From a virus (Duplodnaviria; Caudoviricetes), in IMG/VR virus record IMGVR_UViG_3300032893_000051, positions 1-57,818 of that record: a stretch of DNA of 57,818 bases; one strand, written 5' to 3'. Below the pieces are notes generated by a model. It made no database searches. It saw only the letters and a list, made by a program, of their open reading frames with translations, and was not told the origin of the DNA. Position 1 is the stretch's first letter, and each line of letters opens with the position of its first letter. Shown here piece by piece: positions 19,378-54,333 of this stretch. Both the position numbers and the translations under genes were made by a program.

Positions 19378-22188
19378 TTACGACCTGACACCAAGTCCCC
19401 CCACCGACACGCCCTGGTACTCCCCGTCCAACACTTTTCGCCACTCTTTCGGGTCCAGGATCTTGATCGCTATGACCCAGGAACCTTGCTTCACGGTTTG
19501 GGGTCCGTAGGGCCCCTCGTTCCACTCCAGGTCCTGCGGCACTATGTAGGATTCGACGGGCACCGCCTCTATTTCTTCCTCGTGGTTTTTCCCAACCATT
19601 CGGGAGCTTATCAGGTAGTTGTGCGCCGCTTCCTCGATATCCTCGGGGGTCATCCAATCGTCCTGTTCGTCGAGCTCCTCGGGGGCTAACACTACGCAGT
19701 AAATGATCTGCTTTTTTATGTCGGCCTTCTTGATCGGACAGATCTTCCGCACCCACTTCGTCAGCTCTGGGTATCGGTTGTAGATCGCGTTCTTTACGAT
19801 CTCCTCGTCGGTGGTTCCGGAGGATTGCCGAAGCGACTCCATGGCTTTTTCGAGGGTCTCCATCGGATAGGCCATTCGATCCGGCACAGCGTAGTTCTCG
19901 TTGCCGATGAGTTCAGCGGGTTTCGCATCCAGCATAGGCTGGGACTCCTGCGCTTCCTCTGAGAGAAACCGGTGGAAATCCCCCTGGAACTTCTCAAAGT
20001 CCGGCACCAGCTCCTCGGTCGACGGGTGCACGCCCTCGCCCTGTTCCTCGAGCAGAAATCGGATGAAGTTTTCTCCAAAGTTCGACAGCGCCTGGTCTAG
20101 ATCTCCGATCTCGTGCTTTTCTATTTCGCTGCCGGCCCCGGGCTGCTGTCCGGCGACTATCACTTTGTCATCGGAGTGCTCCTGCTGCCGAGAGACTAAA
20201 GAGCCCTGGCTCGGGTATCCGTGAACGCGATTACCCCGTCCGGAGCTCGTGGCGTCGCTCCAGGTGTAGCCGAGAGCGTCCATCGCCAGTAGTGCGTCTG
20301 CAGGGAGCATGTCATATTGGGCAATCCCGATTCTCGGCTCCGAATCGTTCGACGTGGAAGCATCGGGGACCGCCACTCCAGTGAACCGCTGGCGAAAGCT
20401 CGGCTGCCCCTCTATCTTCTGGACATCCTCGTTTGTTTCATGACCGGTGAGGACGAGCCGTGGGAACTCCTTCGTCCAGTCGGGGTAGTTGTAGATGTCG
20501 TTCGGGCCCTCATAGGTGAATTGCCCTCCTGGCATGAGCACGCGCTGAATCTCCGACAGTAGAGCCTTCTGGTCCTGTTTTTCCAGATCCTGTAGCCCAT
20601 CGCGGAGTCGCACATTTCGGACGCTCCTGTCTGGTAAAGGAATTCCGGTTGTAAGATCGTGAACCACGGTGCCGTAGTCGTAGGGGTAGACGTCAAATCC
20701 CACGTAGCCGGGCATCCGCGCCTGCCCGCTCATCAAATCTATATTCAGCCCCACCGGCCAGTTGGATGTGGATTCTTCTTCGTTTTCGAGAGTGTCCTTG
20801 TTAATTTCCGGGTTATGCTCGATCGCCAACGCATCGCTGGTGTCTACTGTTTCGATTCGCTTTTTCCGATAGTAGTCTGGGTCGTCCTCGAGGTGACTTA
20901 TGGCAAGCTCCTTCGCCTCCTCGCCAACGCTCGTCGTGTGCTCCATTTCCCAGTCGATTCCTGAGACGATTTGCTCCATGCCGTACAAATCCGACGCATC
21001 CTGGTTGTCGCCGGCCACGTAGTTCTTCAGACACTCGCCGTACTTTTCCGCCACGGAAAAAAGCCCCAGTCCCCCAAATTCCTTCAGCACTTCAGCTTCC
21101 AGATTGTTCACGCTCGGGGGCTCTACCTGAGAACTACGGCTCCGGTCAGTCGAGGTAGGCGGAGTCCCCTGCGGCTCGACCTTTCGCTGAAACGGCTGCT
21201 TTTTCTCGTCCTGTGGAGGGGAGGGAACGTGGACGTCCGAGCCCCCTGGCTGAGCTTTGGAGATCTCTGGAAAGTTCCTTCTGAGATGGTCCTTTAGGCC
21301 CGGGTGCGTTTCCATTATCGACATCGTCTCCTCCGGAGTAAAAACTCTCGCCGGCAGCTGCTTTTTCCCAGTCTTTATGGCTTTGTGCATGCGGTGGTGC
21401 CCGTCAATCAGTAGGTATCGAATCCCCTCCTGCGTGGGAATCGAGGCAATGAAAACGGGGTTTTTGGACTTCGATCCCATCGCCGCCTGCTCGTCGACGT
21501 GTATCTTGTCACTCCACGCGGGATCCACGGGGACCTTGGCGTTGTGCTTTTTGCCGGCAAGGTCTCGCGCCTTGTCGATGTCGAAAATCATCGACCCTAT
21601 GACGAACTTCTCCGCGTCCGAGCCGTCACGGACAGTCCCACCGAGGACGTCGGGCAGCGAGCGGTAGATGTTCTCTGGGGTGACGTCCGGGGCAACGCCC
21701 TCGACTGGCTCCGGATCGGATTTTCCGACTTCTCCTGTGGCTTCACCCGTATTCCTACCGACACGCACCGCACGGTCATCCCATAGCTCCTTCATGTGGT
21801 GATCCTTGACGTTGGTGACTTCCAGCCTGGGAAGCCCCTGCGCCTCGAGCCAGTCCTGGATTTTCTTTACGTTGCCTTTTTTCCCAGCGCGCGCGGTGAA
21901 AACCTTTACGTTCTCGCCCTTCGACAGCCAGTCCTTCACCCGGTTGACCATGGGTCCAACGGCTTGGCCGATGTGGTCGTCGCCTTTGTACCCATCGTAA
22001 TGGGCTAGCGTTCCGTCCAGATCGACTCCGATCCAGGAGTCCATTTTCTTCTTCTTGGTTTCTACCTTCTCTGGAAGGTCCATCCCGCGGCTCGCGCGGT
22101 CGTATTCCCGAACGGTCTTTTTGGGGATATCCCCGCGGGCCTCGGCTGCGTGAAAGAATCGACGCTGTGCTTCCGAAACGTACGGCAT
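19378..22188 (-). CDS. Multi-domain prohead protease (C-terminal XkdF-like) fused to HAD, ParB-like, DUF5661-like and SAM-methyltransferase-like domains
   Basis: ATG at 22188 with GGAGG; DLDGTL; LIDGHHR; EMEHT...HLEDDPDYY; SEIQRVLMPGG; C-terminal VLAP...IEEAAH...GSW...GVSVGG. Confidence 0.78.
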   Translation of the reverse strand: MPYVSEAQRRFFHAAEARGDIPKKTVREYDRASRGMDLPEKVETKKKKMDSWIGVDLDGTLAHYDGYKGDDHIGQAVGPMVNRVKDWLSKGENVKVFTARAGKKGNVKKIQDWLEAQGLPRLEVTNVKDHHMKELWDDRAVRVGRNTGEATGEVGKSDPEPVEGVAPDVTPENIYRSLPDVLGGTVRDGSDAEKFVIGSMIFDIDKARDLAGKKHNAKVPVDPAWSDKIHVDEQAAMGSKSKNPVFIASIPTQEGIRYLLIDGHHRMHKAIKTGKKQLPARVFTPEETMSIMETHPGLKDHLRRNFPEISKAQPGGSDVHVPSPPQDEKKQPFQRKVEPQGTPPTSTDRSRSSQVEPPSVNNLEAEVLKEFGGLGLFSVAEKYGECLKNYVAGDNQDASDLYGMEQIVSGIDWEMEHTTSVGEEAKELAISHLEDDPDYYRKKRIETVDTSDALAIEHNPEINKDTLENEEESTSNWPVGLNIDLMSGQARMPGYVGFDVYPYDYGTVVHDLTTGIPLPDRSVRNVRLRDGLQDLEKQDQKALLSEIQRVLMPGGQFTYEGPNDIYNYPDWTKEFPRLVLTGHETNEDVQKIEGQPSFRQRFTGVAVPDASTSNDSEPRIGIAQYDMLPADALLAMDALGYTWSDATSSGRGNRVHGYPSQGSLVSRQQEHSDDKVIVAGQQPGAGSEIEKHEIGDLDQALSNFGENFIRFLLEEQGEGVHPSTEELVPDFEKFQGDFHRFLSEEAQESQPMLDAKPAELIGNENYAVPDRMAYPMETLEKAMESLRQSSGTTDEEIVKNAIYNRYPELTKWVRKICPIKKADIKKQIIYCVVLAPEELDEQDDWMTPEDIEEAAHNYLISSRMVGKNHEEEIEAVPVESYIVPQDLEWNEGPYGPQTVKQGSWVIAIKILDPKEWRKVLDGEYQGVSVGGLGVRS

Positions 22189-23066
22189 TAAGCCTCCGAA
22201 ATCTCGATGGTCAGTATGCACTCGCAGTTAGGGTGAAGCGGAGGGCCATCCACTCCGGCCGAGAACTGGTCGTGCAGTCCGACGGATTCACCATCAAGCT
22301 CCGTGCACTCTGGGCACGGGTTGCCGTCCACCTGCCAGACCTTCTGAGAGCCTTGCCCAATCAGCCCCTCGGCTGCGGCAGCCTGCCAAACTAATTGCTG
22401 CCCCTGATTCTGAACGGCCTGCGTCTCGGTCTTCGCTATCATCTTAGCACGGTAGTCGAGCAGCCTGTCATGGTACTGGTCCACAAGCTTATCTATCCTA
22501 GTTCTGGGCAGCCCCTGCGACTCTAGGGTCGATTGGTAGTTGATCAGCGCTGTGGCCTGCTGTGGGTAGAGTCCGATCATGGGCTTGATCAGCCGAGCCA
22601 TCGTGGGCACTGGAATCGACTCACGGAGCTGTTTCTCCACAGCCTGCTGGATGACTTTCCGGGCATCGGTGCTGATGTCGGTGACGAGCCTTCCCGTTCT
22701 GCGGTCAACGTAGTCCTGTATTCTCCGGTTCTTTAGGTCAAATCTCAAATTCTTATCTGCCTGTGCCGGCAGCGGGGCTAGATCGGAAAACTCTCCCATG
22801 GACCTAGCCATATGCGCGCGGTATTGGTCCAACTCGTCGGGCAGCTCGCTCCAGGGAACGAGTGAGTAAATTGAGTTGTAGTTTCCCGACAACCACGCGT
22901 CCGACAAAGTTTTCTCGCTGATCTTTTTCTTGAAGGACTTTATCCCAGACAAAAAGTCCACGCGCGCGGCCTGGGACATCGTATTCGTCAGCGCCCGCAC
23001 CCGAGCGGTAGTCCTACGGTACGTTTTTCTGGGAGCCGCCTTCTGAACTGTGGAGAAGATGATCAC
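22188..23066 (-). CDS. Head morphogenesis protein (MuF / SPP1 gp7-like)
   Basis: RAKMIAKTE, CPEC..LDG and PPLHPNCEC motifs. Confidence 0.85.
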   Translation of the reverse strand: MIIFSTVQKAAPRKTYRRTTARVRALTNTMSQAARVDFLSGIKSFKKKISEKTLSDAWLSGNYNSIYSLVPWSELPDELDQYRAHMARSMGEFSDLAPLPAQADKNLRFDLKNRRIQDYVDRRTGRLVTDISTDARKVIQQAVEKQLRESIPVPTMARLIKPMIGLYPQQATALINYQSTLESQGLPRTRIDKLVDQYHDRLLDYRAKMIAKTETQAVQNQGQQLVWQAAAAEGLIGQGSQKVWQVDGNPCPECTELDGESVGLHDQFSAGVDGPPLHPNCECILTIEISEA

Positions 23067-31231: not shown

Positions 31232-32158
31232 TCAGTCAACCATGAGTCCGAAGAATTCGAGGATTACAAATCCCGCGACTAGGCAGACCATCACTAGGAA
31301 GATGTAGAACGGCCAACTGTGGTCATCTCCGGTTGCGGAGATTTCTTCCTTGTCCACGTTGAAAATCAAAGCATCCGACGCAACACTGTTGCATTTCACA
31401 CCATTTTTGTCGGTGGCCTTGGTCCAGATGTAGCCTTTTTCTCCCCACTCCGTGCCCCAGGAGTTTTTCACGTGGAACAATCCCACGCCGTTCGGCAGGT
31501 TGCCCTCTGCGTTAAACTTGCATTGTCCCTCACAATCATATCCGGTCAGTAAAACCATGTGGTTCACCTGACCTGGAGTGCAGGCCTTGTACACTCCGCC
31601 CTGATACAGCTCCCAGTGCATGTCCGCATAAACGTCGACAGACACGGGGTGGTGCAGCACGCCGACGGAGTAGGCGATATCGCGGAAGCTGGGGCCGTTC
31701 ATTTCTCCCAGCATCGAATAACTCTCTGCGGAGGCGACGGGTTTGAGATGCCGGCAGGTCGAGGTCTGTCCAGTGTACGGCCACTGATTGTACGTCGGAG
31801 GTCCTTTCGGATTTATGAACCACTCCGCCGCGTCGAAATCCCCTCCACTGCATCCGTCCGCAGTTTCGTAGTCGCAGTCGATCAGATAGTTGAACGACAG
31901 CCGCCCCGGATCCCGTCCGGAGTTTAACAGCGTGTCTCGGAGGTTTCCGGTTAGTGAGAAGTCGTAGCAGTCCCCGCATTCCCCCTGGTTCTCCACGGGC
32001 GAGGCTTTCAGGTCGTACTTATTCGGGATGACGGAGGTTTCCGCGAGAAACGAAATGTGCGGCATCGCCTCGAGCATCTTGTGGGTTTTTCGCTTCAGGC
32101 CTTTGGGATGCAGCGCATAGGCGTTCGTCGCAATCAGAAGGATGAGAATCAGTCGCAT
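31232..32158 (-). CDS. Papain-family (C1A) cysteine protease, exported and membrane-anchored
   Basis: NQGECGDCY, NHMV and KNSWGTEWG catalytic motifs; signal peptide; C-terminal transmembrane helix. Confidence 0.9.
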   Translation of the reverse strand: MRLILILLIATNAYALHPKGLKRKTHKMLEAMPHISFLAETSVIPNKYDLKASPVENQGECGDCYDFSLTGNLRDTLLNSGRDPGRLSFNYLIDCDYETADGCSGGDFDAAEWFINPKGPPTYNQWPYTGQTSTCRHLKPVASAESYSMLGEMNGPSFRDIAYSVGVLHHPVSVDVYADMHWELYQGGVYKACTPGQVNHMVLLTGYDCEGQCKFNAEGNLPNGVGLFHVKNSWGTEWGEKGYIWTKATDKNGVKCNSVASDALIFNVDKEEISATGDDHSWPFYIFLVMVCLVAGFVILEFFGLMVD

Positions 32159-32167
32159 AGGAACTCC

Positions 32168-32311
32168 CTATTTCTTGAATGCCTTTACGTGGTCGATGAA
32201 GTCCTGGGCCGTCTGTGCGGGACTCGAGCTGCCGGTGATCAGTTTGATGATGTCCGGCAAAACCTTCCCCAGCTCCGCCAAAATGAACATAAGCCATTGT
32301 TCCCATGTCAT
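32168..32311 (-). CDS. Small amphipathic protein (47 aa, MTWEQWLMFILAELGKVLPDIIKLITG...)
   Basis: GGAGG upstream; ends 10 nt before the protease start; not in the ORF track. Confidence 0.55.
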   Translation of the reverse strand: MTWEQWLMFILAELGKVLPDIIKLITGSSSPAQTAQDFIDHVKAFKK

Positions 32312-40430: not shown

Positions 40431-40699
40431 ACTCTTTTTTTCAAATCTCTATCGTCGGCATTGGTCTTTGCCGTTCCGCAGAATAAGTGAGCTGGATTAA
40501 TACAGGGCGGATTATCGCCCTTATGCAGGACCCACTGCCCCTTGGGTATTTCTCCGAAAAAAAGCTCGTAGCTAAATCGGTGCGCACGACGCAATTTACC
40601 GCTGATATTAATAAGTCCGTAATCATCGCGGTCTCGATACGGAATCCATTCCCAACAACCAGACTTAGTGATTTCTATAGAGAGCACGTTCTTCCTCAT
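40412..40699 (-). CDS. HNH endonuclease (possibly degenerate)
   Basis: CWEW, RAHRFSY and VLHKGDNPPCINPAHL (the usual Cys in HxCDNP is Gly here). Confidence 0.8.
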   Translation of the reverse strand: MRKNVLSIEITKSGCWEWIPYRDRDDYGLINISGKLRRAHRFSYELFFGEIPKGQWVLHKGDNPPCINPAHLFCGTAKTNADDRDLKKRVWRHVT

Positions 40700-41418
40700 A
40701 TTGGATCCCGAGCAGGCGGTAGATCTGGCTTTGGAAATCCAGCTGCGGCATCTTGACCAAATACTTTGGCATTAAATTCCAATGCTTGATCCTTCATTTT
40801 TCGATATTCTTTATCTTCAGCATCGTGCCCGATGTGCTCTGACCTCACTCCCGGAATGTAGAAAGAATTGAAACCGGCGCGATTGACCCTCTCGTTTAGC
40901 GAGGAATCCTCTAGCCCATAAACTCCATAGTTCTCATTAAAGAAACCGACCACGTCTATTACCTTTCGTGGTAACAAAGTTACGCCGAATATTCTGTTCA
41001 GAGTTTCGTTCAGCCAGTGCGCCTTCAGTCCGAATCTCACCGTGATCGGTGGCGTGCCCGAGTGCCCCCAGTCGAATCCCGCCAGCCCGCAGTTCGGCAC
41101 TATTTTCATTAGCGCCAGCGCGTGCCCGAGCCAGCCTTCAGGTAGCAGGATGTCGTTCGGGAAAAGGCAGATCACCTCGCCAGTGCACCTAAGGTAGAGT
41201 TGGTTAAAGCTATGCCCAACCCCCTCGTTTCTGGAATTCAGTCGGTGGTAGAGAGGTTTGATCTTCGCGATGAAGTTCACTATCCGCTTGTCCTTCGATC
41301 CCTGATCTGCCACGAGTAGCTCCCAGTCGTCGTGGCCCGGATTTCTCAGGTTGTGCGCGACGGTCTTCGAGGTGATTTCGTAGCGGTTCATTGTGAGTAG
41401 TAAAAGGGAGACTTTCAT
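40696..41418 (-). CDS. Glycosyltransferase family 2
   Basis: VADQGS.D, NEGV, VGFFNE.YG.YG.ED motifs. Confidence 0.88.
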   Translation of the reverse strand: MKVSLLLLTMNRYEITSKTVAHNLRNPGHDDWELLVADQGSKDKRIVNFIAKIKPLYHRLNSRNEGVGHSFNQLYLRCTGEVICLFPNDILLPEGWLGHALALMKIVPNCGLAGFDWGHSGTPPITVRFGLKAHWLNETLNRIFGVTLLPRKVIDVVGFFNENYGVYGLEDSSLNERVNRAGFNSFYIPGVRSEHIGHDAEDKEYRKMKDQALEFNAKVFGQDAAAGFPKPDLPPARDPI

Positions 41419-42425
41419 CCGAGCATCTCCTGAATCAGACTAAATCTCTTTCCATTTACGTATCGGACGTCGTTCTTGGAGAACTCTTCCCACGCCGTCA
41501 TGGCGGCATGTTCTGCGGCTTTTGGATTCGACATAAAGAAGGACATCGTCTCCTGAAAGGAGCAGTTACTTGACGGATCGTAGTTATTATGTCCGATGTT
41601 TAGCCACTCCTCCCAGTTTGGACATACGCAGGGGGCTCCAGCGTAGGCGGCCTCGATCTGGGCGATGTTTGACTTCGAACGGTTGAAATCCGTGTCGGCG
41701 AGCGGAGTTACTACCACCTGTGGCTTCAGCGTAGCCAAAGCTACAAAGTACGCAATCGGATCACACGATGGCGCCTTGATTGCCCGGTCGCCGAGTTTGT
41801 CGGAGAGCTGCCAGGCACATGGATCCGCGCCCATGAACACCCACCTAAATTCCGGATATTTTTCTGCCAAGGACAGAATGTCCGGAACCACCGTCGATAC
41901 GTCCCGGTTGTGGGTGGCAGTGCCTCTCCATAGAACGAAACGATTTCGCGGGCCGTTCTGTCGTCTTTTGTTTAGCAGAGGGTCGTAGGCATTTCGCACG
42001 ACCTCCACTCTGCCTTTGGAAAGTTTCCGCAGCTCTTCGCCCAGGCGATTCGTAGAGGCCCACACCATGTCCGCCCTCTGGATCATGGACGTGAGGTTCT
42101 TTACCACTTGTGGATTTCGGTAGAAGTCATAGTTCGGATTATCGGAGGTAATGTTTAGAACGTCGTCGTCCCAGTCTATGATTGTCGGAATGCCGAGTGC
42201 CTTCGCCCAGGTCAGGGCTTGGTCCATTTGCCCGGTGACGGGACGAAGCATGTAGACGACGTCCGCGCAGGCGACGTTCTGCCAGGTGGGCTGATTTGGG
42301 TGAATGACGTACTTCACTTCCACGTCGGCGTCGCGCTCCAGCCAGCGGAACGGACCGATACTTCGATACCAGCTCACTCCGTCGTTAGAATTCGTCGAGA
42401 TAGAAAGTATCTTTATTTTTTTCAT
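41415..42425 (-). CDS. GT-B (GT4-like) glycosyltransferase
   Basis: WYR..P, IDWDDD, AD...ST..L, WRG..TH and PL....FNRSKSNI..E motifs. Confidence 0.85.
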   Translation of the reverse strand: MKKIKILSISTNSNDGVSWYRSIGPFRWLERDADVEVKYVIHPNQPTWQNVACADVVYMLRPVTGQMDQALTWAKALGIPTIIDWDDDVLNITSDNPNYDFYRNPQVVKNLTSMIQRADMVWASTNRLGEELRKLSKGRVEVVRNAYDPLLNKRRQNGPRNRFVLWRGTATHNRDVSTVVPDILSLAEKYPEFRWVFMGADPCAWQLSDKLGDRAIKAPSCDPIAYFVALATLKPQVVVTPLADTDFNRSKSNIAQIEAAYAGAPCVCPNWEEWLNIGHNNYDPSSNCSFQETMSFFMSNPKAAEHAAMTAWEEFSKNDVRYVNGKRFSLIQEMLG

Positions 42426-48637: not shown

Positions 48638-48944
48638 TCAGTTTTCCTCATAAGATGTGGCCTAAAAGATGCGTAAACCGAGCGTCGGCCTAGGTGTTGG
48701 CCCGGGGAGCTGCAACCCCCCGGGCGATATCATTTTTCGGATTGGTGTAGGGTTAGGGCCCCTACAGGCAAGATCAAAAAAAACCAATGAGTGCCCTCAG
48801 GCATCACCTGTATTTTACCCATTCTCCCCATCTTCACCAATCCTTGGTCCTTGCAGGGACCGCTTAAATAATTAGCCTGACTCAAGAAAAAAAACTAGAT
48901 TTTTTTTCACCGTCATTAGATTGTACCACGAGGTTACTTTTTGT

Positions 48945-49679
48945 ATGAACATTTTGACTGGCAGTCGACAGCGTCTTTCTCTTCCTTTACTTCGATGGTG
49001 TCCGAGCCCGATCGTTTTCGTCGAGCCGCAGGAGATCAAATACTACCTTGAGGCACATCCCGGTATTTTTTTTCACGAGCTTTCAAAAAACGACGGTGGG
49101 TTCAGTTACCTAATGAATCAGATGATTAACTACACGCTTGACCGAGGAGAAAGATATTTTCTCTTTACCGACGATGACGTGACCGATCTGCGAATTCGAA
49201 AAGGACTTACCGAAAAATTCTCCCGCGTGCCGGATAGTCTCTGGACCGATCGGTTGAAAGACTTTGCCGAAGCCAATGACCTCGCGCAGCTCGCCGTGAG
49301 TTTCGCTGGTCAGAGCTGGGCAGCGAAGAAGGAAATTCAGTACGGAGTCGGGGCCTGGGGAGTGCACCTGACCGACGCCAAGGCAGTGCGAGCCGTCGGA
49401 GGATACGACGAGTCCCTACCTTGTTTCGGGGACTGGGATATTTCCGCGAGACTGCTCCAGGCCGGCTACCTAACAGCCAGGACCAATCTGGTGACCTTCG
49501 TGCATAAAATGAAAAGCCACGAGGGAGGCGCCTGCGACGTGTACAAAAAAAAGCGTCTCGTCGAGGAGGCAGCCCACCGGGTGGCCGCGAAGTTCCCCGG
49601 CTGCGCCACCGTGAAGTGGGTGGAGTCCCACGGCCTGCACGAGGTGCGTTTTAACTGGAAAAAGCTCTCTTCTAAGTAA
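48945..49679 (+). CDS. TET/JBP-associated glycosyltransferase (TAGT/GREB1-like)
   Basis: FVEPQE..YY, FTDDD, D.D.S and GG motifs; near the TET/JBP gene; GAGG RBS before ATG at 48945. Confidence 0.7.
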   Translation: MNILTGSRQRLSLPLLRWCPSPIVFVEPQEIKYYLEAHPGIFFHELSKNDGGFSYLMNQMINYTLDRGERYFLFTDDDVTDLRIRKGLTEKFSRVPDSLWTDRLKDFAEANDLAQLAVSFAGQSWAAKKEIQYGVGAWGVHLTDAKAVRAVGGYDESLPCFGDWDISARLLQAGYLTARTNLVTFVHKMKSHEGGACDVYKKKRLVEEAAHRVAAKFPGCATVKWVESHGLHEVRFNWKKLSSK

Positions 49680-50163: not shown

Positions 50164-50369
50164 AAAGAGGACGCCCAATAACCGGCTGTGCGCGCGTGAG
50201 ACTAGATGTACGTGTGGACTCCGATATCCGAGAAAAAATTGCCGGCCTCGCCGCGAGTCTGGGATTGGACGTATCGAACTGCGTGCGAATGCTCCTGGCC
50301 ACCCACCCTACACTCTCCGGCGCTCCCGCTCCATCTTCTCCTTCCGGCAGCGAGCGAGCTCCTCGGTAG
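50160..50369 (+). CDS. Ribbon-helix-helix DNA-binding protein (RelB/CopG-like)
   Basis: RLDVRVDSDIREKIAGLAASLGLDVSNCVRMLL. Confidence 0.7.
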   Translation: MKRGRPITGCARVRLDVRVDSDIREKIAGLAASLGLDVSNCVRMLLATHPTLSGAPAPSSPSGSERAPR

Positions 50370-51159
50370 GCGAGCCGCACTTTTGCATCGCACGCAGAGC
50401 GTAGTAGACGATCGAGTATCGGTATCCGTTCTTATTCATAGGCTTCACCGGAGTTACTCCGTGGATGAAGCTTTGTCCGTCGAATAAAAAGTACGTGTGA
50501 TCGTCCAGGAGCCACTTGGCGTTGAACTCCGGAATGCTGAGATTTCCACCCTCAACCAGGTTCTTAAAAACAGCCATGCAACTCATCACTCCGTGCAGGT
50601 TTCCACGATCGAGGTGATATTTCAGGGGATTGTTTTTATTGACGATACCTGAGGTAAATCTGGTGCCGGGAATGATCCATTCAGACCGAACTTTTCGAAG
50701 CGCCGCCCAGTGCGCTGCGGCTGTTTCAGGAGCCCACTTTTCGTAGTAGTGATCTAGCACCTGCCCGAACGCACAAATTTCTTCGTGCACTGCCGGCTGC
50801 TCCTCACAGCAGCTAGAAACTCCGCAGAAGTTCGCCGAGGGATTATACGGAACGCGCGGACGAAATCCAAAGGTCCTGCTTTCTCCTAGCTGCCTGGCTC
50901 GCGCTGCCTGACTCATTTTTCGATCACCTACGCGATCCATATCCGAACTGCGAACCTCCTGGTTGTAGTTGAGGTTTTGAACTGCGCGCAGAACTGAATA
51001 GAAATATGAAAGGAACCGTCCGTAGATGATCACCGGCTTTCCGTCGAGGCAATACACTCCCGGTTCCGAGTAAACTATTTCTGTATCTGACTCAGCTGGA
51101 GACTTCTTAAGCCACTCCTTGGGAGTTATTTCTCGTCGGACTAGATCAATTCTTTGCAT
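50308..51159 (-). CDS. TET/JBP-family 2-oxoglutarate Fe(II) dioxygenase
   Basis: FTSGIVNKN, HLD (HxD), GGNL.IPE, HGVTP and RYSIVYY motifs. Confidence 0.88.
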   Translation of the reverse strand: MQRIDLVRREITPKEWLKKSPAESDTEIVYSEPGVYCLDGKPVIIYGRFLSYFYSVLRAVQNLNYNQEVRSSDMDRVGDRKMSQAARARQLGESRTFGFRPRVPYNPSANFCGVSSCCEEQPAVHEEICAFGQVLDHYYEKWAPETAAAHWAALRKVRSEWIIPGTRFTSGIVNKNNPLKYHLDRGNLHGVMSCMAVFKNLVEGGNLSIPEFNAKWLLDDHTYFLFDGQSFIHGVTPVKPMNKNGYRYSIVYYALRAMQKCGSPTEELARCRKEKMERERRRV

Positions 51160-51811
51160 TCAGCTTTTTCCAAATCGCCTGGGAGTAATCCTCTACCTCG
51201 TATTTCTTCAGCAGCTCGTCGAGGATGGCTATTACCTTTTCGTACTGTTCCTTGGGATAATAGAGGACAATCTGCTTCACGGCGGCGTTCTTGTATGCCT
51301 CGAAGGAAACATTTTCCTTGGCTTCCCCGTCCTTCTTTTCTGGCTCGGGCGGCAGAAGAGCTAGCCTAATTTCGGGCATGTTGATCTCCGGAAAGTTGAA
51401 ACGATCCAGAGCATCCACTTTTAGTTTCGCTCGTTTCATAAAATCCAGGAGTCCGTCGTTGGTCATCGTCCCGTACTGGGAGGTCCCCTGGGCAACGCGC
51501 TCCAGAGCTTCCTCTTCATTTGCAGCTTCCACTGGTGTGCAGAGAAGTTTCGGGATGCCGATTCCTTCCTCCCGAAGTCGCTTCAGCATTTTCCCCCGCT
51601 GATGTCCGTCGCAGAAATACCACTTCTTGGACTTTGGGTGCTGCCAAACATGCGGGCTGAAGGCGAAGCCGGTCTCCATCACCTCTTTTTTCATTCTCTG
51701 GTAGTTTTCTTCGGTGAGTATTTTTAGCTTTCCCTGGAGATCACTAATCTCATCGACATCGAGAAGGACTTGTTTTCCATAGGCCAATCGGACTTCGGTT
51801 TGCTTTTTCAT
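51146..51811 (-). CDS. ParB/Srx-like N-terminal domain protein
   Basis: GF..P..W...DGHQR motif; coupled to the TET/JBP gene. Confidence 0.75.
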   Translation of the reverse strand: MKKQTEVRLAYGKQVLLDVDEISDLQGKLKILTEENYQRMKKEVMETGFAFSPHVWQHPKSKKWYFCDGHQRGKMLKRLREEGIGIPKLLCTPVEAANEEEALERVAQGTSQYGTMTNDGLLDFMKRAKLKVDALDRFNFPEINMPEIRLALLPPEPEKKDGEAKENVSFEAYKNAAVKQIVLYYPKEQYEKVIAILDELLKKYEVEDYSQAIWKKLNAKN

Positions 51812-51925
51812 GGTGGCAGAATACCCGAGCCTGACGGGAATTCAAGGCAAGGAAAAATCTAGACAAACATCTAGACTCGGACTAGACATGAGGCGCTGCG
51901 GCGATGAAAAATGGAGGGACTGCCA

Positions 51926-52177
51926 ATGCTAGATCCTATCTGCGAATTGGTGGGACACCAGGTGTCCAAACGTCTCCACTGGACCGGCAACTATAAAACG
52001 AACGGCCAGTGGTGGTCCATAAACGAGCGCCGATGCAAAAGATGCCGCCAGGCGATCGACAGGAGGAAAATACTCGGCCGATTCACGAACGCGACTCAGG
52101 AGCAAATTAGCGATGCGATGGAAGAGAGCGACGAAAAATCCAGGCGTTTAGGCGAAGACCACTTCGAACATATCTAG
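51926..52177 (+). CDS. Small Zn-binding protein (DUF1660-like)
   Basis: ICELVGH...CKRC; GGAGG RBS. Confidence 0.6.
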   Translation: MLDPICELVGHQVSKRLHWTGNYKTNGQWWSINERRCKRCRQAIDRRKILGRFTNATQEQISDAMEESDEKSRRLGEDHFEHI

Positions 52178-52186
52178 AAAAAAACC

Positions 52187-52215
52187 TAGACTTATTTACC
52201 ACACTCCACTATAAC
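52187..52215 (+). promoter_or_regulatory. sigma70-like promoter for the repeat array and RAMP operon
   Basis: TAGACT-N17-TATAAC immediately before the array. Confidence 0.65.
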
Positions 52216-52702
52216 GCAGCTCGACATGACGTGGACTGTAGGTAAGCGCAACGGCCCGAAGCGACATGGCAGCATCGGATGGTCTGGTAGTCGAGTGACA
52301 TAGAACGACCTAAAGAGGTTAGAAGTGGAAGGGCAGTAGGGGTAACGGAGTAAAGGGGAAGGAATGGGCATCGAGTGACCAGGCAGTAGGGGAGGGTAAA
52401 AGAACTGCACTGATAAGGTACTGACAAGAATTGGCCTGATAAGAATTGTTCTGGCAGGAAAGACTCGCAAAGTAGCGTAACGGAGTGATTGAAACTGGTT
52501 AGCATTGAAGCGAAGCGGTTTGTTTCGGCAGAAGGGGAGCGGCTAAAAGTGAATTGAAGTGGACTGTCTCGGCAGACTCGGATCGGATCGGCGAGAACAG
52601 AACCGAAGCGGACTAAACAGGATGGAAATGGAAGGATAGGGCAGTGACGGATAGGCGTGAAATGGACTGATGGAATGGAAGGGAATGGAATGCAAAAGGC
52701 AA
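52215..52702 (+). ncRNA. Non-coding array of 8 GGCAG-delimited units made of 5-nt periodic G-N-N-N-N steps (candidate guide-RNA array)
   Basis: GGCAG at 52268, 52332, 52382, 52453, 52527, 52571 and 52640 (CGCAG at 52215, GGCAA at 52698); 72 of 82 pentamers start with G in a manual parse. Confidence 0.8.
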
Positions 52703-52725
52703 CCTGTAAGGAATTCTTACAAGGT
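52702..52725 (+). other. Stem-loop closing the array
   Basis: ACC-TGTAAG-gaatt-CTTACA-A-GGT, just before the GAGGAG RBS of 52739. Confidence 0.55.
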
Positions 52726-52738
52726 CGAGGAGTGAAGT

Positions 52739-53221
52739 GTGACCAAGAATTATACCGCGCTACCTGGTAGCGCTTTTTCCGACGACGATGCGCAGATAAT
52801 TGGTAGGTTCTTAGATAGGAAATTTCCTGACGGGCAGTTCACCGCGAAGGATGTCCTCGAGGCAGCTCGACCGCGATCCAGCGAGATTCATCGATTTGTT
52901 TTTTCGACGTCACCTCAGGACGCGGCGGAACGCTACTATTTGCTTCGTGCACGCAAACTAATTTCATGCTTGGTGGTCCACGTAGACGATGTACCCACGA
53001 AGAAGTACGTCTCCAGAGTTTTCGTCGAATCGTCAGCCAAAAAAATGTTCATGGATGTAGATCGCGCGCGAAGATCCGAGGATATCTGGAGTCAAGTGAT
53101 GGACCAGGCGATGCGCGACGCAATCAGGTTTCGAGACAGGTACAGTCGGCTCAAAAAAATTGGGCCGATTATTAAGGCAATAAACCGGGTTGAGGCGAAA
53201 TTGAAGGAGAAAAGCAGATGA
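52739..53221 (+). CDS. Helical partner protein of the RAMP-like gene
   Basis: TAKDVLEAAR..S.IH.F...AAERY.L.RARKLI motif; between array and RAMP gene; ATGA-coupled to it. Confidence 0.75.
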   Translation: MTKNYTALPGSAFSDDDAQIIGRFLDRKFPDGQFTAKDVLEAARPRSSEIHRFVFSTSPQDAAERYYLLRARKLISCLVVHVDDVPTKKYVSRVFVESSAKKMFMDVDRARRSEDIWSQVMDQAMRDAIRFRDRYSRLKKIGPIIKAINRVEAKLKEKSR

Positions 53222-53841
53222 AGAAAGTGGAAAATGCCAAAACAAAAAAGGAAGTGGTGAGGATTCCACCAATAGAGCTGAAGACCGCGCGGATCACACT
53301 GGTGGGAGTAACCCCACTTCTGGTACATCGGAAGTCCGAGAAGATGGAGAAGTACCTCGCCGAGCGCGATCAGAACGCCCCGAAGAATAAGCCAGCGCCG
53401 AGAAGTCCACACCAGGAATATCTGGACTCTATGTATAAGATTCCAGGAAAGAAGAATGTCTATGGAATTCCTGCAAGCGGAGTGAAGCTCTGTGCAGTTT
53501 CAGCGTGCCGATTTATCGGCGGCATTAAAATGACCACTGCTTTAGGCGCCTTCCACGTCGTGGGAGACATCGGTGGACTAATCCCTATCGAGGGAGGAAA
53601 GCCGACCATGGACGAAAGAATCGTACAGATAGGTAAGTTCGGTAGCAAAACTCCTCAACTACGGTACAGAGGACGCTGGGACAAGTGGCACCTGAATGTG
53701 ACCATTCGATATAACAGCGCGGTTATTAGTCCGGAACAATTAGTTCACCTCTATGAAAATGCAGGATTTGGCGTCGGACTCTGCGAGCATCGCCCAGAGA
53801 AAAAAGGGAATCTAGGAATGTTCTCTGTCAAGCGAGGCTAG
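53218..53841 (+). CDS. Stand-alone Cas7/RAMP-like RNA-binding protein
   Basis: ITLVGVTPLLVH (first strand), YGIPASGVK (IPxSxxK) and C-terminal G-rich loop AGFGVGLCEHRPEKKGNLGMFSV. Confidence 0.75.
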   Translation: MKKVENAKTKKEVVRIPPIELKTARITLVGVTPLLVHRKSEKMEKYLAERDQNAPKNKPAPRSPHQEYLDSMYKIPGKKNVYGIPASGVKLCAVSACRFIGGIKMTTALGAFHVVGDIGGLIPIEGGKPTMDERIVQIGKFGSKTPQLRYRGRWDKWHLNVTIRYNSAVISPEQLVHLYENAGFGVGLCEHRPEKKGNLGMFSVKRG

Positions 53842-53916
53842 GCATCAGAGGATCGGAAGGGGTATTTATCGGCACCAATTTGCCAGAGTTGTAAGACCCA
53901 GGTATAGAAGAAAGTC

Positions 53917-54135
53917 ATGAAAAACATCGAGACAATATCTCTTCCGACCAAGCGTAAGAAGAAGGGCGTGCAATGCAATCTGGACCAGGAGCTGCTTTCG
54001 GCGGCTCGGGTAGAAATGCGGAAGGAGAAAATCTCCATCACCGCGTGTCTGGAGTGGGGGCTGAAGGTTTACCTGCTCAGGTGCAACCCGCGGAAGGCGA
54101 AGGAAATAGGGATTCGTCTAGAGGCTGGAGGATAA
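53917..54135 (+). CDS. Ribbon-helix-helix DNA-binding protein
   Basis: VQCNLDQELLSAAR...ISITACLEWGLKVYL. Confidence 0.6.
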   Translation: MKNIETISLPTKRKKKGVQCNLDQELLSAARVEMRKEKISITACLEWGLKVYLLRCNPRKAKEIGIRLEAGG

Positions 54136-54333
54136 GATATTTGGAGGTAAAAAGTGGACATAGAAAAACTAACAATTGGTGAAGCGAGAGAGTTAAGCGC
54201 GATGCTGGACGTGCGCGGAAAACGAAAAAAGAATTAATGGGATACCCCATAGAGTGGACCGCATTAGATGCTTGGGCAATGCAGTGGTTCCGCTCCAAGC
54301 GAGGGAAGCATTCAAAAGATTGATAGGGCTAAA

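Follow-up and report, generated by a model that had tools for sequence, protein, structure and literature searches.

A probable VIPR locus with a G-R-A/NN pentamer array in a myovirus-like phage

What kind of system is encoded by a tailed phage in which a long stretch of five-nucleotide repeats is followed, on the same strand, by two overlapping genes? This question was raised by a locus in the 57,818-nt stretch of DNA analysed here (the window), from an environmental, myovirus-like phage from wetland. A first-pass annotation had read the locus as a lone RAMP protein that occupies 5 nt of a pentamer-repeat RNA at a time, gripping a fixed triplet and recognising targets by the variable dinucleotides, and had likened it to the phage system VIPR (Viral Interference Programmable Repeat). 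VIPR was described in 2026 in a bioRxiv preprint (10.64898/2026.04.26.720920) and a structure paper (10.64898/2026.04.26.720927). Homology of the 207-aa protein to the Vipr of Escherichia phage SUSP1, and its Cas7/Csm3-like fold, supported this reading. The locus is considered to be a VIPR system of a tailed phage, with a probability of about 0.82; it adds a member to an already known kind of system, in print since April 2026.

The minimal layout of vipr and one vap, without cas genes and without a CRISPR array, was found at the locus (Table 1). No cas genes were detected among 51 proteins examined with PADLOC or 66 examined with PHROGs, and neither a CRISPR-like direct repeat nor a repeat-spacer array was found in the window, in agreement with the earlier statement that cas1/2/3/5/6/10 and a CRISPR array were missing. 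The locus DNA had no match among 50,697 phage records. Three DNA runs labelled as wetland metagenome contained the stretch or parts of it, with one contig, from the probable source sample, identical across 51000-54300 and otherwise short pieces; no RNA run was among the runs listed as containing the stretch.

Table 1. Coordinates of the features at the locus (positions in the window).
Feature	Position	Strand	Description or basis
Candidate promoter TAGACT-N17-TATAAC	52187..52215	+	Letters present
vrRNA array	52223..52700	+	About 8 units of 5-15 pentamers (G-R-A + NN), each closing with GGCAG
Array unit starts, approximate	52223, 52272, 52337, 52387, 52457, 52531, 52575, 52644	+	Pentamer parse
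Hairpin closing the array	52703..52723	+	8-bp stem, 5-nt loop, without U-run on the + strand; sequence scan
vap-like accessory gene	52739..53221	+	160 aa, GTG start; conserved partner of this Vipr clade
Terminator-like hairpin and T-run	52757..52773	+	Within vap codons 7-12; sequence scan
vipr	53218..53841	+	207 aa, minimal RAMP: RRM core, thumb hairpin, C-terminal G-loop (GFGVGLCEHRPEKKGNLG); profile, model
Possible vestige of a downstream array	53841..53875	+	Seven pentamers, 5/7 starting with G, bounded by GGCAT and GGCAC; weak

The pentamer array and its flanks

Same-base autocorrelation over positions 52230-52700 was 0.41, 0.39 and 0.40 at lags 5, 10 and 15, compared with 0.19-0.31 at the lags from 1 to 19 that are not multiples of 5. 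For 52223-52700 the on-minus-off-period statistic was 0.148 (z 11.3 against shuffles), and the maximum of the same statistic for period 5 was 0.062 in 1124 other genome windows and 0.043 in 1000 shuffles. This is the strongest period-5 stretch of the 57.8-kb genome. Other period-5 peaks in the window, for example at 32131-32300, were rejected as arrays, being coding sequence. GGCAG occurred seven times (at 52268, 52332, 52382, 52453, 52527, 52571 and 52640), with spacings of 64, 50, 71, 74, 44 and 69 nt and a density in the array of 14.6 per kb, as against 1.3 per kb in the remainder of the window. The ~490-nt period-5 array with GGCAG delimiters claimed in the first-pass annotation was thus recovered, with the z value given above.

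When 56 pentamers were framed from GGCAG, the first position was G in 84%, the second A in 43% and G in 39%, the third A in 70%, and the last two were variable. This logo agrees with the degenerate, GRA-biased G-R-A + NN repeat that had been described, and it does not show the canonical GGY triplet. As the preprint allows 'a related consensus' beside GGY (NNNGG, YNNNG, NNNNG; 10.64898/2026.04.26.720920), the missing GGY does not exclude membership of VIPR. Internal register slips were present in two units, at 52337-52457. The array RNA folded no better than shuffles (z +1.78). A search of Rfam with the array gave a chance match only (PYLIS_3, E 0.84), and hammerhead ribozymes are therefore absent between the units.

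Each unit closes with GGCAG, the final G of which is also the first base of the following unit, and this amounts to a 1-nt stagger. The spacing between GGCAG motifs was equal to 4 modulo 5 in 4 of 6 cases here and in 126 of 189 cases in the relatives, and a register shift of -1 was visible in a logo of 101 junctions across the family. Whole units were seen to swap places between two phages that are 95% identical (loci L027 and L028). The slip at GGCAG across the family and the shuffling of units support the earlier proposal that each GGCAG-delimited unit is a separate guide.

The sequence upstream of the array had been called a promoter. Its letters are present, and its status as a promoter found no support: a consensus promoter scan did not list 52187-52215, as the last base of the -10 hexamer is C, and the region held no more promoter-like sites than shuffles did. 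It remains a candidate by guesswork. The closing hairpin that had been noted is present with its 8 pairs. Six terminator-like sites were counted in the region, compared with 2.5 +/- 1.5 in shuffles, and the one within the early vap codons might, speculatively, be an attenuator. In the closest relatives the array begins directly after the vipr stop codon; the few pentamers found at this place could possibly, as a weak candidate, be the vestige of a downstream array.

The Vipr and Vap proteins

The family profile of the 207-aa protein (A1) matched PDB chain 36pp_D, 'SUSP1 Vipr protein' (E 4e-9), and hhalign against the SUSP1 gene product gave a probability of 97.2% (E 3.8e-11) over 69 columns of the C-terminal half only. 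With the single sequence, phmmer against the PDB returned only chance matches (E at least 0.3), so that the SUSP1 Vipr was reached by the profile alone. The protein was assigned to PHROG phrog_4652 (E 3e-14), and Pfam has no family for either the 207-aa or the 160-aa protein. As judged by profile homology, the 207-aa protein is a Vipr, homologous to the solved Vipr of SUSP1. Its AF2 model (pLDDT 87.7) had 50 Foldseek matches in the PDB at E<=1e-3, and all 32 of those listed were Csm3/Cmr4/Cas7-type chains, the best among those listed being 6xn3_F (E 5.7e-6), with a modest fold similarity to Csm3 (TM 0.35-0.55). The modelled structure indicates that Vipr has a Cas7/Csm3-like fold, and with these matches the RAMP hallmarks that had been recognised in this reading frame were upheld.

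The RNA-contact residues of SUSP1 Vipr, H17, R138, D177, W178 and R179 (10.64898/2026.04.26.720927), align to H, R151, E190, H191 and R192, the N-terminal half having been aligned by MAFFT only. Three of them are identical and the change of D to E is conservative; P193 was aligned too. R151, E190, R192 and P193 are invariant across 43 homologues. W178, which stacks on G2 in SUSP1, is replaced by His, and the pocket residue E71 by Ser.

The coupling of the two reading frames that had been described was present as a 4-nt ATGA overlap of vap and vipr. Vap was assigned to PHROG phrog_15946 (E 9.5e-6). In 44 of 54 loci one of its profile homologues adjoins vipr and shares its strand, and a Vap homologue stands beside vipr in 121 of 134 sequences; for the related loci the count was 120 of 133. 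The 160-aa protein had been described as helical; the AF2 model (pLDDT 88.3) retains the helices and adds a four-stranded sheet, so the protein is not purely helical. No Foldseek match to the Vap model was obtained at E<=1e-3, with winged-helix proteins among the weak matches, and the best result of a wide VIA-align search (Z 6.6) covered the C-terminal helical hairpin only; no fold was assigned. The Vap profile did not resemble the gene that follows vipr in SUSP1 (probability 0.1%), and no Vap homologue was found in the SUSP1 locus. Prediction of a Vap-Vipr complex returned 'no answer' (score 0.00). Vap is taken to be a co-inherited helper, possibly a DNA-binding one.

Relatives and comparison with known systems

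An array of period 5 was found no more than 2.2 kb from vipr in 111 of 123 non-duplicate related loci. The array was always on the strand of vipr, although gene order varied, and the order array-vap-vipr was rare (2/112 loci). The more distant relatives carry the canonical GG-C/T-NN repeat, and A was the top base at triplet position 3 in 16 of the 112 arrays parsed. The frequency of G at triplet position 2 reported above for the present array compares with 80% or more in two related loci (L002 and L003), and with 34-48% across the seven arrays, six others included, of Viprs with a GLCEHRP loop. A general rule that His at the W178 position relaxes G2 was rejected, since three GVGEHRP arrays keep G2 at 60-72%. 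A search of genome contigs with the single protein found none, and a profile search of these contigs found 4 MAG loci in four different lineages; no host was therefore inferred. A search for guide targets with the NN code and skips of 0-3 covered the genome of the phage itself and 301,751 bases from related loci, and nothing exceeded the shuffled-guide controls. The preprint likewise reports no self-target for its own systems (10.64898/2026.04.26.720920).

The SUSP1 VIPR (type II; PDB 36pp) and the present locus have homologous Vipr proteins, and both are phage-borne two-gene loci with a flanking 5-nt repeat RNA and no cas genes. In both, a fixed triplet is joined to a variable dinucleotide, the triplet being GGY in SUSP1 and G-R-A here, with 9-16 repeats per guide in SUSP1 and 5-15 here (10.64898/2026.04.26.720920). 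The SUSP1 vrRNA is described as having a conserved structured 3' tail and a pseudoknot, whereas the units here abut with a 1-nt overlap at GGCAG and have neither. In SUSP1 a single vrRNA lies upstream and three others lie downstream, whereas the array here lies upstream as an operon leader. The marks of VIPR type II (the SUSP1/P. fulva clade), vap1 and a tailed vrRNA, were not seen at this locus, and its own peculiarities are the G-R-A/NN rather than GGY/NN repeat, the array-vap-vipr order and an accessory protein that bears no relation to SUSP1 vap1. Other VIPR types include 'staggered vrRNA arrays', in which adjacent vrRNAs overlap by 1 nt, so that where one ends the next is marked to start (legend of fig. 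S18, 10.64898/2026.04.26.720920). As far as the wording of that legend goes, these match the GGCAG/G junction here and in the relatives; according to the preprint, sRNA-seq did not confirm this architecture (10.64898/2026.04.26.720920). Non-canonical VIPR arrays (GAC/NN, CAC/NN, WGT/NN and TGH/NN) likewise have period 5, a Vipr-like fold and a triplet other than GGY (10.64898/2026.10.21.760802), and neither GGA/NN nor G-R-A/NN is named as an example in the available text of that paper. The earlier idea of a distinct subtype was weakened, because the first preprint already distinguishes seven types and six families of vap and covers both 'staggered' arrays and consensus repeats other than GGY (10.64898/2026.04.26.720920) and the later one adds non-canonical triplets (10.64898/2026.10.21.760802).

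The class 1 backbones Cas7, Csm3 and Cmr4 have an RRM core, a thumb and a glycine-rich loop in common with Vipr, and like Vipr they form polymers along a guide RNA at a fixed step (10.64898/2026.04.26.720920, 10.64898/2026.04.26.720927). The step is 6 nt with one flipped base in Cas7 and 5 nt with three flipped bases in Vipr. Class 1 CRISPR systems have a repeat handle and Cas5, Cas6, Cas10 and Cas1-2 partners, none of which was found here, and sequence similarity between class 1 Cas7 and Vipr is nil, with no Pfam match.

Alternative readings and proposed mechanism

The low frequency of G at position 2 relative to L002 and L003, the internal slips in two units, the short pentamer vestige where relatives keep an array and the rare gene order might together indicate a decaying VIPR locus, in which the proteins are intact and the array has drifted and moved upstream, leaving no working guides. 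This is considered improbable, as G1 and A3 are conserved as in the relatives, no other stretch of the genome has so strong a period-5 signal, and both reading frames are intact with all invariant residues kept. In addition, the relaxed position 2 is shared by the six other arrays of GLCEHRP-loop Viprs, which suggests changed specificity rather than decay.

Action of the Vipr-RNA complex on RNA, or mere processing of RNA in the manner of Cas6 or Csm3, in place of DNA silencing, is regarded as very unlikely. The nearest solved folds outside VIPR, among the matches listed, are indeed RNA-targeting type III and type VII Cas7 subunits, but the fold resembles Csm3 only modestly, PADLOC and PHROGs revealed neither a nuclease nor a Cas10-like partner, and dsDNA is what is bound by the closest relative in sequence whose structure has been solved (10.64898/2026.04.26.720920, 10.64898/2026.04.26.720927). 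It is scarcely credible that the period-5 stretch is a DNA element (protein-binding iterons or bent DNA) or minus-strand coding sequence at 52192-52505. Two minus-strand reading frames of 92 and 98 aa do overlap the array, but they had no PADLOC match, and the pentamers change frame at intervals of 44-74 nt, a pattern that would not be tolerated in a reading frame. The arrays of the relatives, moreover, vary in order around vipr yet are always on its strand, and the same repeat class was shown to be RNA in SUSP1 (10.64898/2026.04.26.720920).

If the locus is a VIPR system, its + strand would be transcribed in the order array, vap, vipr. As the homologous SUSP1 structure suggests, each pentamer would be occupied by a single Vipr protomer, which would hold bases one to three (here G, G/A, A) and expose the last two. 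The 1-nt overlap at GGCAG would shift the 5-nt register so that filaments stop there, and cutting of the transcript would yield about 8 guides, each 44-74 nt long. By analogy with the SUSP1 experiments, the Vipr-RNA filament would bind dsDNA in which matches to the exposed dinucleotides alternate with single skipped bases (NNx code), and would block transcription of a competing phage, satellite or prophage.

In SUSP1, perturbations of the GGY motif, GGY>GGA guide mutants among them, abolished silencing (10.64898/2026.04.26.720920), and the Y pocket excludes purines (10.64898/2026.04.26.720927). This clade would then have to bind its triplet differently. A tentative explanation, to which rather little credence is given, is that the fixed triplet of the clade was re-coded from GGY to GGA, relaxed here to G-R-A, by a few substitutions in the pocket and the G-loop. 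The substitutions concerned may be Ser or Ala in place of the bulky residue at the position of SUSP1 E71, and Tyr, Phe or His in place of W178. If the re-coding were true, the 'fixed' part of the VIPR code would be evolvable and orthogonal Vipr/vrRNA pairs would exist in nature, and the ratio of guide to protein would be set by an operon that begins with the array and has a terminator-like hairpin in the early vap codons.

The recovery of this locus indicates that a VIPR system can be found by a model from raw sequence alone. VIPR is an RNA-guided silencing of DNA by a non-contiguous code, and a proposed ancestor of the CRISPR backbones. The present locus and its relatives form a natural series of Viprs whose arrays use A, and not a pyrimidine, at triplet position 3. 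Such Vipr/array pairs could serve as orthogonal programmable repressors, and they may show which residues set the specificity for the triplet.

The 207-aa protein and its locus

The locus at 52187-53875 (+) is a genuine VIPR (Viral Interference Programmable Repeat) locus. The analysis shows its homology and fold, the anatomy of its array and the family-wide linkage of its three parts. The first-pass annotation, which had likened it to VIPR-type RAMP plus repeat-RNA systems, was right in kind. VIPR was first described in bioRxiv 10.64898/2026.04.26.720920 as a lone RAMP protein (Vipr), an accessory vap gene and guide RNAs (vrRNAs) of 9-16 GGY/NN pentamers, the NN positions of which pair with dsDNA with one target base skipped. 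That preprint also describes seven types and six vap families, the non-GGY consensus repeats NNNGG, YNNNG and NNNNG, and arrays that are hammerhead-interspersed or 'staggered' with a 1-nt vrRNA overlap. In the structure, each pentamer takes one protomer and the Y3 pocket shuts out purines (bioRxiv 10.64898/2026.04.26.720927). Non-canonical triplets were reported in 21 of 99 period-5 clusters (bioRxiv 10.64898/2026.10.21.760802).

The 207-aa protein is Vipr. Pfam had no family for it, and its PHROG match (phrog_4652, E 3e-14) has no assigned function. None of its many relatives, which number 96 when clustered at 90% and 2805 as cluster representatives with E<=1e-3, carried a Pfam domain, and 'hypothetical protein' was the only name given to any of them. 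Further relatives occurred in 34 phage records, from Mycobacterium (27), Gordonia (5) and Pseudomonas (1) phages and one cyanophage. A profile (A1) of 43 homologues matched one solved structure in the PDB, 36pp chain D, 'SUSP1 Vipr protein' (E 4e-9), all later matches being at chance level (E >= 0.3). Alignment of A1 by hhalign with the gene product of Escherichia phage SUSP1 (NC_028808 28474-29061) gave a probability of 97.2% (E 3.8e-11) over 69 columns. Eight of the nine residues named in the structure preprint were as stated in the SUSP1 RefSeq translation, T175 being V instead. The equivalents of H17, R138, D177, W178 and R179 in the 207-aa protein are H, R151, E190, H191 and R192, and those of E71 and M72 are S and G. 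An AF2 model (pLDDT 87.7, pTM 0.79) gave 50 Foldseek matches at E<=1e-3, the best 32 of which were Csm3, Cmr4, type VII Cas7 or Cas7-11 chains throughout (TM 0.34-0.55). The protein had been described as having RAMP hallmarks, and the model has a Cas7/Csm3-like fold.

The window is a single contig (57,818 bases, GC 54.8%) encoding the tailed-phage proteins terminase, portal, major head, sheath, tape-measure and baseplate. A promoter role for the first element of the locus is a guess. The terminator-like hairpin directly 3' of the array could act as an attenuator on transcription that runs on from the array into vap-vipr. Elsewhere, a weak ParB-like match adjoins the DpdA-like gene; by their sequence matches, the DpdA-like, glycosyltransferase-like and glucosyltransferase-like genes together hint at phage DNA modification. 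The 947-aa ORF matches head-maturation protease and methyltransferase PHROGs in its C-terminal part and, weakly, kinase and isomerase families in its N-terminal part, and looks like an unusual fusion.

Features of the locus and of the surrounding phage genome
Feature	Position	Strand	Detail
Promoter-like TAGACT-N17-TATAAC	first element of 52187-53875	+	letters in sequence
About 480 nt without plausible gene	between promoter-like motif and hairpin	+	
Array	52223-52700	+	
Hairpin	52703-52723	+	
160-aa ORF (vap-like)	52739-53221	+	GTG start
Terminator-like hairpin and T-run	52757-52773	+	within vap codons 7-12
207-aa ORF (vipr)	53218-53841	+	ATG overlapping stop of 160-aa ORF
Possible pentamer-like vestige	53841-53875	+	35 nt
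947-aa ORF	19378-22221	-	within head module
Two glycosyltransferase-like genes	40696-42425		
Glucosyltransferase-like gene	48921-49679		
Queuine tRNA-ribosyltransferase-like (DpdA-like) gene	50308-51811	-	phrog_6059, E 2.8e-35

The period-5 array and its unit boundaries

The array had been read as pentamer-coded, and its period-5 signal was confirmed. Same-base autocorrelation had maxima of 0.41, 0.39 and 0.40 at lags 5, 10 and 15, with values of 0.19-0.31 at non-multiples of 5 among lags 1-19. The period-5 statistic was 0.148 (z 11.3), the control maxima being 0.062 (1124 other genome windows) and 0.043 (1000 shuffles), and a Fourier scan placed the period-5 maximum of the whole genome at the array. 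The 56 pentamers framed on GGCAG had G (84%), A (43%) or G (39%), and A (70%), followed by two variable positions. No Rfam family matched the array RNA. Its folding energy was -115.3 kcal/mol vs -123.9 +/- 4.8 kcal/mol for shuffled sequences, 97 of 100 shuffles folding equally well or better; such a lack of extra folding would be expected of a protein-coated single strand.

GGCAG, the proposed delimiter, occurs seven times in the array (14.6 per kb vs 1.3 per kb elsewhere). Spacings between copies were 4 mod 5 in 4/6 cases in the window and in 126 of 189 in relatives (0 mod 5 in 48, other in 15). In a logo of 101 junctions with GGCAG at 0-4, GG stood upstream at -10/-9 and -5/-4, so that GGCAG shares the frame of the preceding unit, and downstream at +4/+5, +9/+10 and +14/+15, so that the following unit begins on its last G. 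The delimiter claim is supported, and the junctions agree with the 1-nt-overlapping 'staggered' arrays in the legend of fig. S18 of bioRxiv 10.64898/2026.04.26.720920. Unit lengths were 44-74 nt in the window and peaked at 49-59 nt in relatives. Between two phages about 95% identical, the same GGCAG-bounded units were reordered and some were gained or lost (loci L027:3300-3900 and L028:3900-4520), a turnover which, judged from sequence comparison, is cassette-like. Another pair (L007 and L008) had 50 differences in flanking DNA and zero in vipr or the array.

Gene order and triplet in relatives

Relatives came from two IMG/VR scans (49 and 80 loci) and, as four MAG loci, from a profile search of genome contigs. 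The array census required a recognisable G-loop and, counting the window, took in 124 non-duplicate sequences; as the initial reading had implied for homologues, a period-5 segment lay <=2.2 kb from vipr in 112, window included, and was absent from 12. Profile A2, representing the 160-aa protein, detected a homologue on the strand of vipr in 44 of 54 loci and 121 of 134 sequences, and found none at the SUSP1 locus. Gene orders (n=112) were vipr-vap-array (67), vipr-array-vap (20), vipr-array (10), vap-vipr-array (9), array-vipr-vap (3), array-vap-vipr (2, the window and L130) and vap-array-vipr (1). In the closest relatives (50-57% identity) the order is vap-vipr-array, with the array beginning at the vipr stop. 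At that site, which carries the entire array in those relatives, the window has only a possible vestige, seven pentamer-like steps between GGCAT and GGCAC; it may be the remnant of a relocated array.

The clade of the window has a GG-A triplet (L002, G75/G80/A83), and more distant relatives have GG-C/T (L013, G100/G100/C90; L018, G97/G95/C68). At position 3, A was the most frequent base in 16 of 112 arrays: 10 of the 11 with Tyr/Phe aligned to W178, 5 of the 86 with Trp, and the window (His). C or T topped this position in 81 of the 86 Trp arrays. The W178-aligned residue appears to track the triplet, a lead only, as the sequences are related. The E71-aligned residue was Ser, Ala or Gly in six tabulated GGA-type loci of the window's clade; GGY loci mostly have Val or Ile there. 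An exception, L030, has Val yet A at position 3. Position 2 was relaxed (G 34-48%) in 7/7 arrays with a GLCEHRP loop and 0/3 with GVGEHRP. These associations are to be read as correlations among kin sequences, not independent events. Beside another Vipr homologue (L035:3601-3996), the array had G (87%) at position 1 and A (86%) at position 2, a non-canonical triplet resembling the GAC/NN class of bioRxiv 10.64898/2026.10.21.760802.

Targets and proposed mechanism

By analogy with SUSP1, one Vipr protomer would bind each pentamer, the Vipr-RNA complex would read dsDNA as a variable dinucleotide plus one skipped base, and the output would be silencing. Processing of the transcript at unit junctions, and the role proposed for Vap (the 160-aa protein), are guesses. 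In a target search of the phage's own genome (skips 0-3), no unit beat order-shuffled guides (one unit, U5, scored 20/30 vs a control maximum of 21), and nothing above such guides was found in 301,751 bases of related loci. Because the VIPR preprint dates from April 2026, the locus adds to an already described system; its non-canonical G-R-A triplet and rare gene order are of interest to those working on VIPR specificity.
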